64,000 bases of DNA, from the NCBI RefSeq assembly GCF_054482595.1, contig NZ_CM137008.1; one strand, 5' to 3'. Each line of letters opens with the position of its first letter. The first letter of the stretch is position 1. Shown piece by piece: positions 1,526 to 59,601 of this stretch. A program made the translations under genes and the position numbers. The notes beneath the pieces were generated by a model, which had not been told where the DNA came from, searched no databases, and saw only the letters and a list, made by a program, of their open reading frames with translations.

Positions 1526-1606
1526 AAATACTCCCGCTATCAACTGACGCTAGTATAACGGAAGCAAATCATCTGCAATGCATTAAGCAGCAGGCAAATT
1601 GAGGAT

Positions 1607-1665
1607 AAAAAAAACCCCCACATCATGTGGGGGAAGACAGGGATGGTGTCTATGGCAAGGAAAAC
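1607..1665 (-). ncRNA. cpxQ: cpxP 3'UTR with rho-independent terminator (hairpin 1615..1633 plus U-run on minus strand); position of the 3'UTR-derived sRNA CpxQ
   Basis: Immediately downstream of cpxP stop (TAG at 1676..1674): CCCCCACAT-C-ATGTGGGGG followed by T8 on the minus strand. CpxQ is known to be processed from the cpxP 3' end; exact 5' end not determinable from sequence. Confidence 0.5.
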
Positions 1666-1673
1666 AGGGTTTA

Positions 1674-2174
1674 CTACTGGGAACGTGAGTTGCTACTACT
1701 CAATAGCTTCAACGATGAACTTTTTTGCCATTGCGTCACGTCACGCAACTGCTCCATTCGTTGTTGATGTTTCTCGTTTAAAACCGCTTGCTGCTCCGGC
1801 GTTAACAGGCGATACATTTGGTTGCGGACTTTTGCCATCTCAACCTGACGAGCAATTTGCTCATTCGCCATTTTTTCTGCCTGTGCGCGCACAGCGTTTT
1901 CATCAAAATTTTCTGCGGTGACAAGGCGATGCATTGTCTCCAGTTCGCTAACATTAACAGGAGGCTGTTCGTGCCGGGCCTGTTGCATAAGATCTCGCAT
2001 CTGCTGACGCTGATGTTCGGTTAAACTTATGCCGTCGAACATATGGCTCTGCGTACTGCGCTGCGTAAGTTCTTCACCCGGATGCCAGTTATCGCCTGAA
2101 CCGACTTCAGCAGCGTGGCTTAATGAACTGACTGCCAGCGTTGAGGCCATGACGGCAGCGGTAACTATGCGCAT
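1674..2174 (-). CDS. cpxP: Periplasmic Cpx-pathway inhibitor/chaperone CpxP
   Basis: 166-aa product [15 protein letters not shown]... with signal peptide and LTXXQ-type motifs; divergent from cpxRA. Confidence 0.92.
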
Positions 2175-2252
2175 CATTTGCTCCCAAAATCTTTCTGTCG
2201 CGATTCAACGATAGAGAGTTTACGATTCAGGCTGCAAACATGCGTCAGGGGG

Positions 2253-2267
2253 TGTAAAACAACGTAA
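2253..2267. promoter_or_regulatory. CpxR~P binding box GTAAA-N5-GTAAA in cpxP/cpxRA divergent promoter region
   Basis: Exact GTAAAacaacGTAAA between cpxP start (2174) and cpxR start (2324); matches published CpxR consensus. Confidence 0.7.
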
Positions 2268-2323
2268 AGTCATGGATTAGCGACGTCTGATGACGTAATT
2301 TCTGCCTCGGAGGTATTTAAACA

Positions 2324-4402: not shown

Positions 4403-4488
4403 TGTAGGCAGGATAAGGCGTTTACGCCGCATCCGGCATTTGAGCAGGATGCCTGATGCGACGCTGATAGCGTCTTATCAGGCCTACA
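4403..4488. repeat. REP/BIME element pair
   Basis: Convergent GCCGGATGCGGCGTAAACGCCTTATCC / GCCTGATAAGACG...CATCAGGC palindromic units between cpxA and yiiM. Confidence 0.8.
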
Positions 4489-6563: not shown

Positions 6564-7184
6564 TTATTTTTTCGCCGCGAAACGTGCCGCTGCTTCGTCC
6601 CAGTTCACCACGTTCCAGAACTCTTTGATGTAGTCCGGACGGCGGTTCTGGAATTTCAGGTAGTAAGCATGTTCCCACACATCCAGGCCCAGAATCGGGA
6701 AGCCGGAAGCGCCAGAAATAGCTTCACCCATCAGCGGGGAGTCCTGGTTAGCAGTAGAAACCACCGCCAGTTTATCGCCTTTCAGCACCAGCCATGCCCA
6801 GCCGGAACCAAAGCGGGAAGCTGCCGCTTTTTCAAATTCTGCTTTGAAGTTATCAACGGAGCCGAAGTCACGTTCGATAGCCGCTTTCAGGTCACCCTGC
6901 AGGGTGGTGCCTTTTTTCAGACCTTTCCAGAACAGGCTGTGGTTAGCGTGACCGCCAGCGTTGTTGCGCAGTACGGTTTTCTTGTCTGCTGGCAGCTGGT
7001 CCAGTTTGGTGATCAGCTCTTCAACCGGCAGGTTGGCAAATTCTGGCAGGCTTTCCAGCGCCGCGTTGGCGTTGTTTACGTAGGTCTGATGGTGTTTGGT
7101 GTGGTGGATTTCCATGGTCTGCTTATCGAAGTGCGGTTCCAGGGCATCGTAAGCATACGGCAGGGATGGCAGGGTATAGCTCAT
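6564..7184 (-). CDS. sodA: Manganese superoxide dismutase
   Basis: 206 aa, [36 protein letters not shown]...; Mn/Fe SOD metal ligands present. Confidence 0.95.
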
Positions 7185-7258
7185 ATTCATCTCCAGTATT
7201 GTCGGGCGGCCGATTGTTAATGCCGCGTAAGCAGTTGGTTCATTATAGTTAATTAAAT

Positions 7259-13276: not shown

Positions 13277-13600
13277 GCCGGATGCGGCGCGAGCGCCTTA
13301 TCCGGCCTACAGGTCGGCAACAGTTGTAGGCCTGATAAGACGCGACAGCGTCGCATCAGGCATTGATTGCCGGATACGGCACGAGTGCCTTATCCGGCCT
13401 ACAGGTCGGCAATAGTTGTAGGCCTGATAAGACGCGACAGCGTCGCATCAGGCATTGATTGCCGGATGCGGCACGAGCGCCTTATCCGGCCTACAGGTCG
13501 GCAATAGTTGTAGGCCTGATAAGACGCGACAGCGTCGCATCAGGCATTGATTGCCGGATGCGGCACGAGCGCCTTATCCGGCCTACGGGTCGTGCATCCG
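13277..13600. repeat. Tandem BIME array: about 3.5 copies of a 92-bp unit, each holding a convergent REP pair
   Basis: Unit starts (GCCGGAT(G/A)CGGC...) at 13277, 13369, 13461 and 13553; near-identical copies, few substitutions. Confidence 0.9.
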
Positions 13601-22143: not shown

Positions 22144-25100
22144 ATGCAGGTCAGCAGAAGGCAGTTCTTTAAGATCTGCGCTGGCGGTATGGCAGGCACC
22201 ACGGCAGCGGCACTGGGTTTTGCACCCAGCGTAGCACTCGCGGAAACCCGGCAGTATAAACTGCTGCGCACCCGCGAAACCCGTAATACCTGCACCTATT
22301 GTTCCGTAGGCTGTGGGCTGTTGATGTACAGCCTCGGTGACGGAGCAAAAAACGCCAAAGCATCTATCTTCCATATCGAAGGCGATCCGGATCACCCGGT
22401 CAACCGCGGTGCACTTTGTCCGAAAGGCGCTGGCCTGGTGGATTTCATCCACTCCGAAAGCCGTCTGAAGTTCCCGGAATACCGTGCCCCTGGTTCTGAT
22501 AAATGGCAGCAAATCAGTTGGGAAGAGGCGTTTGATCGCATCGCCAAACTGATGAAAGAAGACCGCGATGCTAACTACATTGCGCAAAACGCCGAAGGCG
22601 TGACCGTTAACCGCTGGCTCTCCACCGGGATGCTGTGTGCTTCCGCGTCGAGTAACGAAACCGGCTATTTAACGCAAAAATTCTCCCGCGCGCTGGGTAT
22701 GCTCGCGGTCGACAACCAGGCGCGTGTCTGACACGGACCAACGGTAGCAAGTCTTGCTCCAACATTTGGTCGCGGTGCGATGACCAACCACTGGGTCGAC
22801 ATCAAGAACGCCAACCTCGTCGTGGTGATGGGCGGTAACGCCGCTGAAGCTCACCCGGTCGGATTCCGCTGGGCGATGGAAGCCAAAATTCACAACGGCG
22901 CGAAGCTGATTGTGCTCGATCCTCGCTTTACGCGTACGGCGGCAGTGGCTGACTACTATGCCCCTATTCGTTCCGGTACTGACATTGCTTTCCTGTCAGG
23001 CGTATTGCTGTACCTGCTGAACAATGAAAAATTCAACCGCGAATACACCGAAGCCTATACCAACGCCAGCCTGATCGTGCGTGAGGATTACGGCTTTGAA
23101 GATGGCCTGTTCACCGGCTACGACGCAGAAAAACGCAAGTACGATAAATCCTCCTGGACTTACGAACTGGACGAAAACGGCTTCGCCAAACGCGATACCA
23201 CGCTGCAACATCCGCGCTGCGTGTGGAACTTGCTGAAACAGCACGTTTCCCGCTACACGCCAGATGTGGTTGAAAACATCTGTGGTACGCCAAAAGACGC
23301 GTTCCTGAAAGTCTGCGAATACATCGCAGAAACCAGTGCTCACGATAAAACTGCCTCGTTCCTGTATGCCCTCGGCTGGACGCAACACTCCGTTGGTGCG
23401 CAAAACATTCGTACGATGGCGATGATCCAGCTGCTGCTCGGCAACATGGGGATGGCAGGCGGCGGCGTTAACGCCCTGCGCGGTCACTCCAATATTCAGG
23501 GGCTGACGGACCTGGGCCTTCTGTCGCAGAGCCTGCCAGGTTACATGACGCTGCCAAGCGAGAAGCAGACCGATCTGCAAACCTACCTTACCGCCAACAC
23601 GCCAAAACCGCTGCTGGAAGGCCAGGTAAACTACTGGGGCAACTACCCGAAATTCTTCGTCTCCATGATGAAGGCTTTCTTTGGTGATAAAGCAACGGCG
23701 GAAAATAGCTGGGGCTTTGACTGGTTGCCGAAGTGGGATAAAGGCTACGACGTCCTGCAATACTTCGAGATGATGAAAGAGGGCAAGGTCAATGGCTATA
23801 TCTGCCAGGGCTTTAACCCTGTTGCCTCATTCCCGAACAAAAACAAAGTGATCGGTTGTCTGTCGAAACTGAAGTTCCTCGTCACCATCGACCCGCTGAA
23901 CACTGAAACCTCTAACTTCTGGCAGAACCACGGTGAGCTGAACGAAGTTGACTCGTCGAAGATCCAGACCGAAGTGTTCCGTCTGCCATCGACCTGCTTC
24001 GCGGAAGAGAACGGTTCTATCGTAAACTCAGGTCGCTGGTTGCAGTGGCACTGGAAAGGTGCGGACGCCCCAGGGATTGCGCTGACTGATGGCGAGATCC
24101 TCTCCGGTATCTTCCTGCGCTTGCGCAAGATGTATGCCGAACAGGGTGGCGCGAACCCGGACCAGGTGCTGAACATGACCTGGAACTACGCCATTCCGCA
24201 TGAGCCGAAGTCGGAAGAAGTAGCGATGGAGAGCAACGGTAAGGCGCTGGCCGATATTACCGATCCGGCAACCGGTGCGGTTATCGTCAAGAAAGGCCAA
24301 CAACTTAGCTCGTTTGCCCAACTTCGCGATGACGGTACAACTTCCTGTGGTTGCTGGATTTTCGCCGGTAGCTGGACGCCGGAAGGCAACCAGATGGCAC
24401 GCCGTGATAACGCCGATCCGTCTGGCCTCGGTAACACGCTGGGCTGGGCATGGGCATGGCCGCTTAACCGCCGCATTCTGTATAACCGCGCCTCCGCAGA
24501 TCCGCAGGGTAACCCGTGGGATCCGAAGCGTCAGTTGCTGAAATGGGACGGCACTAAGTGGACCGGCTGGGATATTCCGGACTACAGCGCAGCGCCTCCG
24601 GGTAGCGGCGTCGGGCCGTTTATCATGCAGCAGGAAGGCATGGGGCGTCTGTTTGCCCTCGATAAGATGGCGGAAGGTCCGTTCCCGGAACACTACGAGC
24701 CGTTTGAAACGCCGCTGGGAACTAACCCGCTGCATCCAAACGTTATCTCGAACCCGGCTGCACGTATCTTTAAAGACGACGCCGAAGCATTGGGTAAAGC
24801 CGATAAGTTCCCGTATGTCGGAACCACCTATCGTCTGACCGAGCACTTCCACTACTGGACCAAACACGCGCTGTTGAACGCGATTTTGCAACCAGAGCAG
24901 TTTGTGGAAATCGGGGAGTCGCTGGCGAATAAACTTGGCATTGCCCAGGGCGATACCGTGAAAGTCTCCTCCAACCGTGGCTATATCAAAGCCAAAGCGG
25001 TGGTGACCAAACGTATTCGTACGCTGAAAGCGAACGGCAAAGATATCGATACCATCGGTATTCCGATTCACTGGGGTTATGAAGGCGTAGCTAAAAAAGG

Positions 25101-51097: not shown

Positions 51098-51248
51098 AAC
51101 TTTGCCTCAGGCATTAGAAATAGCGCGTTATTGTACACGGATTAATCGCACTACAAAACAGGATCACAAACATCCTCCGCAAACAAGTATTGCAGAGTCC
51201 CTTTGTGATCGCTTTCACGGAGCATAAAAAGGGTTATCCAAAGGTCAT

Positions 51249-51297
51249 TGCACCAATATGGTGCTTAATGTTTCCATTGAAGCACTATATTGGTGCA
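51249..51297. promoter_or_regulatory. Tandem NtrC-binding sites (TGCACC-N5-GGTGCA type) upstream of glnA
   Basis: TGCACCAATATGGTGCT (51249..51265) and GCACTATATTGGTGCA (51282..51297). Confidence 0.75.
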
Positions 51298-58006: not shown

Positions 58007-58075
58007 AATGGTTCGTCTTTTAGCCGTTTTATTCAGTATAGATTTGCGGCGGAATCTAACAGAAAGCAAGCAAAG

Positions 58076-58320
58076 AAAAAAGGCGACAGATTACTCTGTC
58101 GCCTTTTTTCCTGACTCATAACCCTTAACGGGTCTTACAATCCTTGCAGGCCGCCAACACACCCTGTTTTTCCTTTAGCCGGAACAATCCGTGTTGATTC
58201 CATTTCCGTTTAATTACGTCTCCGGACGTTTGTCTTCCTGACAATCCTCTGTCTTCGCCTCCTGGCGCTCCTGACCCTCATCCTGAGTCATTGTTCCTGT
58301 TAGCGTCCTCGCTCTATGGG
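58076..58320 (-). ncRNA. csrC: CsrC small RNA (CsrA-sequestering)
   Basis: Minus strand reads AUAGAGCGAGGACGCUAACAGGAACAAUGACUCAGGAUGAGGGUCAGGAGCGCCAGGAGG...; more than ten GGA motifs; ends in hairpin AAGGCGACAGAGUAAUCUGUCGCCUUUUUU; no ORF. Confidence 0.85.
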
Positions 58321-59345: not shown

Positions 59346-59454
59346 TAAAAAACGCCCCAGTCATTACTGACTGGGGCGGCTAAAATATTCAGCCAAATCC
59401 GATTACGTGAAGTAAAAGGTCTGAAAGATAGAACATCTTACCTCTGTACCCTAC
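59346..59454 (-). ncRNA. spf: Spot 42 small RNA
   Basis: Minus strand reads GUAGGGUACAGAGGUAAGAUGUUCUAUCUUUCAGACCUUUUACUUCACGUAAUCGGAUUUGGCUGAAUAUUUUAGCCGCCCCAGUCAGUAAUGACUGGGGCGUUUUUUA with terminal hairpin plus U-tract. Confidence 0.9.
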
Positions 59455-59601
59455 GCGACTAACTTTACTCTTTTTTGTTCAGTTCAGAAAGCACTTTTTG
59501 TAATTTTTTTTCAGTTGTTGCATAGGAATTTCTAATAGCCATCACAAAACGTGACAGCTTATGTTGCTTACTTACGAAAAAAGGGCATGTTCAGGCGAAT
59601 C

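Follow-up and report, generated by a model that had tools for sequence, protein, structure and literature searches.

The small RNA CpxQ in the 3' untranslated region of Escherichia coli cpxP and its overlap with a Wphi-type phage attachment site

The short stretch of DNA that follows cpxP, reading towards fieF, raises a simple question: does it only end the cpxP transcript, or does it also encode an RNA with a function of its own? The question was posed by a first-pass annotation, made from the sequence alone, of a 64,000-nucleotide stretch of E. coli DNA (contig NZ_CM137008.1 of assembly GCF_054482595.1; hereafter the window). CpxQ is a textbook example of a small RNA (sRNA) derived from a 3' untranslated region (3'UTR), through which the Cpx response to envelope stress has a non-coding arm. 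We conclude that positions 1664-1607 of the window (minus strand) almost certainly encode CpxQ, a 58-nt Hfq-dependent sRNA that would be released from the cpxP mRNA by RNase E.

The cpxP 3' tract and its identity with K-12 cpxQ

The tract lies in the cpxA-cpxR/cpxP-fieF region of E. coli, where cpxRA is adjacent to and divergent from cpxP. The product of the parental gene is 99% identical to proteins named CpxP and carries the Pfam domain LTXXQ, and its start in the K-12 annotation corresponds to the second ATG, at position 2174. The TAG stop codon (1676-1674, minus strand) is followed directly by a second in-frame stop, TAA (1673-1671). As the first-pass annotation had claimed, the 3'UTR is 67 nt long and ends in a GC-rich hairpin and eight uridines on the minus strand. 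The same annotation had placed the functional RNA in this interval; CpxQ is indeed encoded within it, and the mature RNA comprises the 58 nt from 1664 to 1607 and not the whole UTR. The features of the locus are as follows.

2254..2268, no strand assigned: GTAAA-N5-GTAAA, a CpxR-type box in the intergenic region between the divergent cpxR and cpxP genes, upstream of cpxP
1674..2177, minus strand: cpxP coding sequence (from the list of open reading frames), whose mRNA is the parent of CpxQ
1673..1607, minus strand: cpxP 3'UTR, 67 nt, UAAACCCUGUUUUCCUUGCCAUAGACACCAUCCCUGUCUUCCCCCACAUGAUGUGGGGGUUUUUUUU
1665..1673, minus strand: linker from the cpxP stop to the CpxQ 5' end, UAAACCCUG, which makes up the 5' half of the RNase E processing site CCCUG↓UUUU
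1607..1664, minus strand: mature CpxQ sRNA, 58 nt, matching K-12 b4716; mean conservation 0.959 in an 81-sequence alignment
1654..1661, minus strand: 5' seed (CpxQ nt 4-11), UCCUUGCC, invariant in the 81-sequence alignment
1635..1651, minus strand: weak 5-bp hairpin AGACA/UGUCU with loop CCAUCCC, predicted from the minimum free energy fold and overlapping the second conserved region (nt 17-34)
1615..1633, minus strand: terminator hairpin, CCCCCACA/UGUGGGGG, 8 pairs (6 of them G-C), loop UGA
1607..1614, minus strand: U8 tail and transcript 3' end, conservation 0.99, the expected Hfq-binding 3' end (Hfq binding: PMC9438474)

The curated record of K-12 MG1655 lists an ncRNA gene cpxQ (b4716, 'small regulatory RNA CpxQ', 58 nt, 4106330-4106387) ten bases past the end of cpxP. 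The window is identical to it at 57 of 58 nt, and the sole difference from the K-12 RNA lies in the terminator loop, where position 1623 is A in the window and C in K-12; most other genera have the A as well. Locus, strand, length, seed, terminator type and processing-site context are shared with CpxQ of both K-12 and Salmonella enterica, and all features that define CpxQ at the level of sequence are present. The element is not new: the reference strain already has it annotated, and the window carries an ordinary copy of it. The tract was found in 5,425 of 5,426 complete E. coli genomes, in 4,100 of them at no less than 99% identity across a query of 86 nt. In E. coli genomes annotated by PGAP, cpxP alone is listed over this tract, and cpxQ (b4716) appears only in the curated K-12 record, probably because Rfam holds no CpxQ family.

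Folding of the 67-nt tract gave a predicted free energy of -17.4 kcal/mol (z = -2.35), and 5 of 200 shuffled sequences were as stable. A scan for terminator patterns was by itself at chance level (2 sites against 1.2 expected in 1.2 kb), and the terminator gains its significance because it stands directly after the cpxP stop codon and is present in all 89 related loci that we collected. Candidate coding sequences around the tract were rejected: a small open reading frame that begins at the terminator-loop AUG was discarded because neither the loop nor the DNA beyond it is conserved, and the plus-strand frames at 1625-1921 and 1627-1767 are antisense artefacts within cpxP.

Conservation across cpxP loci

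Loci were gathered through the CpxP protein, without using the UTR as bait. An initial homologue search retrieved almost exclusively Escherichia CpxP, and representatives clustered at 50% identity were used instead. A scan with a CpxP protein profile provided loci from 80 species of Enterobacteriaceae (CpxP 62-98% identical), and searches with individual CpxP representatives provided nine further, more distant loci (CpxP 43-59% identical). Conservation was scored as the mean fraction identical to E. coli in an alignment of 81 sequences, that is, the 80 species loci and the window. The CpxQ element was present, in the same arrangement, in 89 of the 89 cpxP loci from other species, spanning CpxP proteins 43-98% identical. 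Within the alignment, conservation was distributed along the locus as follows.

cpxP, last 150 nt: 0.746
cpxP, third codon positions: 0.625
1676-1665, stop codon and linker: 0.789
1664-1634, CpxQ upstream of the terminator: 1.000 (30 of 31 positions invariant; 1636 at 0.99)
1633-1615, terminator stem-loop: 0.879
1614-1607, U tail: 0.991
1606-1547, the 60 nt past the terminator: 0.379

These values bear directly on the simplest alternative, namely that the tract is the intrinsic terminator of cpxP and nothing else, the RNA fragment being functionless. A hairpin followed by U8 is sufficient for termination, and such sites turn up in a simple scan roughly as often as chance predicts. However, the 31 nt that precede the hairpin have no role in termination and are nearly invariant while synonymous sites in cpxP and the downstream spacer drift, and the stem itself varies freely. 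Together with functional data from E. coli and Salmonella (PMC4817254; PMC9438474; PMC10250213; 10.1101/271551), this makes a terminator devoid of any RNA function extremely improbable.

The two parts of CpxQ are conserved in different ways. The terminator occurs in 34 distinct variants, all of which fold to a stem of 6-9 bp followed by a U tail, and across these variants stem positions 4-7 exchange CG, GC, AU and UA pairs, that is, they undergo compensatory changes. Terminators of differing loop length were misaligned by MAFFT; for this reason no pairs were counted on the alignment, and each variant was folded separately. The arms of the upstream AGACA/UGUCU hairpin are invariant, which leaves covariation uninformative there, and in two distant loci (L094 and L085) the loop is altered while the arms are kept. 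A 5' part conserved in sequence joined to a hairpin conserved in structure is what would be expected of a base-pairing sRNA of the Hfq type, and the comparative evidence, even taken apart from the literature, leads to the conclusion that the tract encodes a functional RNA. Our analysis establishes the anatomy of the tract, its identity with K-12 cpxQ, the extreme conservation of the seed part and the covariation of the terminator.

In the distant loci the core is nearly unchanged, yet it lies anywhere between roughly 10 and roughly 90 nt from the cpxP stop codon. Since the core is kept at varying distance from the stop codon, the conserved unit is the RNA rather than the 3' end of cpxP. Immediately 5' of the mature RNA, the heptamer AACCCUG (1671-1665) is conserved at 0.90-0.98 in the 81-sequence alignment although it is non-coding and lies outside CpxQ, a pattern that fits a constrained processing site. 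The proposal in the first-pass annotation that this is CpxQ, a functional RNA beyond a terminator, is therefore borne out by the near identity to b4716, the occurrence in every locus collected and the near-invariance of 1664-1634.

Rare variants of CpxQ were also seen. In Trabulsiella guamensis (L071, 2014-2081) the 3' half is altered and extended; in L094 (2041-2100), where fieF is absent, the second conserved region is changed (CAUAUAUCUUGUCU); and in L095 (641-699) the 5' seed is partly changed (GAUUCCUUGUCUU).

Release from the cpxP mRNA and target pairing

The exact sequence GTAAA-N5-GTAAA occurs only once in the 64-kb window, at 2254-2268, against 0.07 occurrences expected by chance. We take this motif to be the CpxR box consensus and the site to be the likely point from which phosphorylated CpxR drives the cpxP-CpxQ transcript. 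On the route that we propose, envelope stress would lead CpxR-P to activate the cpxP promoter, CpxQ having none of its own, and the cpxP mRNA would terminate at the hairpin and U8. RNase E would then cleave nine nt past the cpxP stop codon (CCCUG↓UUUU), and the 3' fragment so freed would be bound and protected by Hfq. Its invariant, single-stranded 5' part would pair with target mRNAs, leading either to a block of translation at the ribosome-binding site or to decay by RNase E; the targets would be nhaB, skp and cfa and, in Salmonella, also agp, ydjN and fimA.

Much of this route has been documented for CpxQ elsewhere. The Cpx-induced cpxP mRNA is cut by RNase E near its stop codon, with Hfq sharpening the cut and protecting the product, and the resulting RNA of about 60 nt represses nhaB, skp, agp, ydjN, fimA and cfa (PMC9438474; 10.1101/271551). 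[quoted passage not shown] Deletion of cpxQ in E. coli alters CpxP levels, and the same paper reports Skp to be negatively regulated by CpxQ (PMC4817254). Cleavage, Hfq binding and target repression may be carried over to the window from this literature, which concerns the near-identical K-12 RNA and CpxQ of other strains. The first-pass annotation had spoken of a stable, Hfq-dependent fragment of the cpxP mRNA, and published Hfq dependence and RNase E processing agree with it (PMC9438474). It had also named the case that would count against CpxQ, the lack of a stable species of about 60 nt; northern blots in E. coli detect endogenous CpxQ, both 5' variants of which have half-lives of >16 min and lower nhaB mRNA (PMC10250213). 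That the RNA represses mRNAs of inner-membrane proteins, as had been claimed, holds according to PMC9438474 but is too narrow, the targets also including the periplasmic chaperone skp and the lipid-modifying enzyme cfa.

Some sRNAs of this kind, such as MicL or DapZ, are not processed but transcribed from a promoter of their own inside the 3' end of the gene, a mode known for some 3'UTR sRNAs (10.1101/341578), and the same might be supposed here. Yet a scan of the minus strand from 2177 to 1664 turned up no sigma-70-like promoter, and the CCCUG↓UUUU context is kept even though its distance from the stop codon changes. Published work further reports processing by RNase E, a natural 5' monophosphate and loss of the RNA when the cleavage site is mutated (PMC9438474; PMC10250213; 10.1101/341578), and we consider an internal promoter very unlikely. 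Release by RNase E is thus the preferred reading; for a putative cut between G1665 and U1664, however, the base at -2 is U and not the R of the consensus RN↓WUU (quoted in 10.1101/271551). In their mode of origin, SroC (from gltI), SdhX (from sdh-suc), NarS and MalH resemble CpxQ, each being an mRNA 3' end freed near the stop codon that carries a 5' monophosphate and the parental terminator, whereas their sequences, parental genes and targets are unrelated to those of CpxQ.

Target pairing was searched with CpxQ nt 1-16 against K-12 target regions in a short-window scan. The best site in the cfa leader, at -135..-128, forms the pairs C5:G-129, C6:G-130 and U7:A-131. These are exactly the bases mutated by Bianco et al.; C5, C6 and U7 are required for repression of cfa. 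The window has the seed intact, these three bases included (UUUUCCUUGCC), and our analysis shows its complementarity to this validated cfa site. Because the published numbering of C5, C6 and U7 matches the predicted duplex, the 5' end of CpxQ can be placed at window position 1664. Plausible pairing sites for the seed also exist at the Shine-Dalgarno sequences of skp (-18..-5) and nhaB (-16..-4); given the number of windows scanned they are no better than expected, and we regard them as no more than consistent with targeting by CpxQ. Duplex prediction over the whole regions did not discriminate at nhaB or skp, where shuffled seeds did equally well (fractions of 0.49 and 0.50, respectively).

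Hrs1 and the Wphi attachment site

Rfam 15 has no CpxQ family, and a scan of the whole window at gathering thresholds matched no family at 1607-1673. Elsewhere in the window, CsrC (58064-58317, minus strand), Spot 42 (59346-59464, minus strand) and ES222 (51179-51286, minus strand) scored above their Rfam thresholds. A selenocysteine insertion element (SECIS_3) was matched at 22726-22784 (plus strand), and naRNA4 (CssrE) was matched four times, once singly (4407-4484, plus strand) and three times in tandem (13329-13399, 13421-13491 and 13513-13583, minus strand).

When the scan was made permissive, one family, RF02628 ('Hrs1'), aligned over the entire element (1607-1679), but on the strand opposite to cpxP (plus), with 44.5 bits against a gathering threshold of 56.4 (E = 1.2e-7); permissive matches to NsiR1, RyhB and OmrA-B were set aside as chance-level terminator look-alikes. 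Taken at face value, the RF02628 match would place a functional RNA on the plus strand, antisense to cpxP. Such an RNA, however, would begin with A8 and, having no U tail, could not terminate, and hrs1 itself has been listed in the orientation of cpxP and fieF with a Rho-independent terminator (PMC4070566). When 16 loci were each turned so that cpxP reads on the plus strand, RF02628 matched directly 3' of cpxP in 14, always on the minus strand, as would result from a seed entered in Rfam on the wrong strand. The chance that the plus strand encodes the functional RNA is practically nil, and we retain CpxQ on the minus strand.

The hrs1 RNA of Erwinia amylovora is a 74-nt, Hfq-dependent sRNA detected by northern blot, which lies between cpxP and fieF in the orientation of both and was classed as Erwinia-specific (Zeng & Sundin, 2014; PMC4070566). 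In Hfq dependence, position in the cpxP-fieF interval and orientation it is like CpxQ of the window; against the Rfam model, the window differs in scoring below the threshold and in matching only on the opposite strand. Three matches to RF02628 exceeded the gathering threshold, all directly after cpxP in distant loci and antisense to it (L085, 2029-2101; L096, 2011-2084; L086, 2005-2078), and the model opens with A7, the complement of a U tail. From the antisense placement in 14 of 16 loci and this A7 start it follows that the Rfam model is strand-reversed, and the sub-threshold score of the window is explained by divergence from an Erwinia-type seed together with the reversed model, not by a different type of element. 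Hrs1 therefore appears to be the Erwinia orthologue of CpxQ, with RF02628 as its reverse complement, and the present alignment contradicts its Erwinia-specific status. No paper in the literature searched names both CpxQ and Hrs1, and RF02628 seems worth correcting and merging as CpxQ.

A search of E. coli genomes for the tract returned about 670 more places than records. A perfect copy of 45 nt (window 1648-1604) was found on a 32-kb circular replicon, the genome of a P2-like phage, with the integrase gene roughly 100 bp away. These 45 nt are shared by 62 phage records, of which 55 reach no less than 99% identity; all 45 positions are identical in Wphi and 54 others. In Wphi the core sits between ogr and int, an interval that we take to be the attP position of P2-like phages. 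The corresponding feature of the window is:

1604..1648, no strand assigned: 45-bp attB core of Wphi-type P2-like phages, comprising CpxQ nt 17-58 and AUC, identical to the attP core

In the lysogen E. coli EcPF16 (NZ_CP054224.1), a prophage of about 31 kb, flanked by attL and attR, is inserted precisely between fieF and cpxP. Its attL (L099, 38238-38282) consists of a complete, intact CpxQ followed by the int side of the phage, and its attR (L099, about 7153-7197) of the ogr side, the core (44 of 45 nt) and the fieF side; the 45-nt core is also located at L097 6001-6045 and L098 2501-2545. The window has a single copy of the core, and the site is thus unoccupied here. A Wphi-type integrase gene was found in 790 of 5,426 complete E. 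coli genomes (about 14%). The 3' two-thirds of cpxQ is therefore the attB of Wphi-type phages, and integration rebuilds the sRNA. In this it resembles other attachment sites in genes of the sRNA or tRNA type, such as the rybB ncRNA and cyaR RNA loci used by P2-type prophages and ssrA used by a CP4-type element, in all of which the 3' part of a small-RNA gene, terminator included, is duplicated in attP and the gene is rebuilt intact. The Wphi site has been published as 'cpxP-fieF', that is, between the two genes (2011; PMC3032704), and as the older MG1655 coordinate 4104392 (2011; PMC3448106), and both papers predate every CpxQ paper that we found. No paper in the literature searched names CpxQ as the integration target of Wphi, and the link between cpxQ and attB, which concerns a common group of P2-like phages, seems to be unstated there.

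Since 1648-1604 is a phage attachment core and the element lies upstream of fieF, its conservation might instead reflect a constraint on the DNA, either for attachment or as a regulatory site of fieF, and not a function of the RNA. Nevertheless, a host gains nothing by keeping attB, phages being the ones to follow conserved host sequence, and CpxQ nt 1-16, which lie outside the core, are equally invariant. As for fieF, the spacer expected to hold its promoter is the least conserved segment (0.38), and CpxQ remains beside cpxP where fieF is absent (L093 and L094). Constraint on the DNA is thus exceedingly improbable as the source of the conservation, which we attribute to the function of CpxQ as an RNA. 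In one of these loci (L093, 2065-3233; GCA_036016195.1, CpxP about 47% identical to that of E. coli), a phage-type integrase gene stands directly after CpxQ in place of fieF, suggesting that integration of this kind also takes place outside Escherichia.

The phage copy of CpxQ nt 17-58, which comprises the second conserved region and the Hfq-binding terminator, lies directly 3' of ogr on the same strand. It is conceivable, if improbable and at the RNA level pure speculation, that the ogr transcript or the attR of a lysogen might yield a truncated, CpxQ-like, Hfq-binding RNA that mimics or competes with host CpxQ. If so, such an RNA could tie the expression of phage late genes to the control of envelope stress.

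In itself the CpxQ copy of the window matters little, and the two side results, on RF02628 and on the attachment site, are modest points of database content and annotation, not discoveries about CpxQ function. A practical point is that routine annotation overlooks CpxQ.
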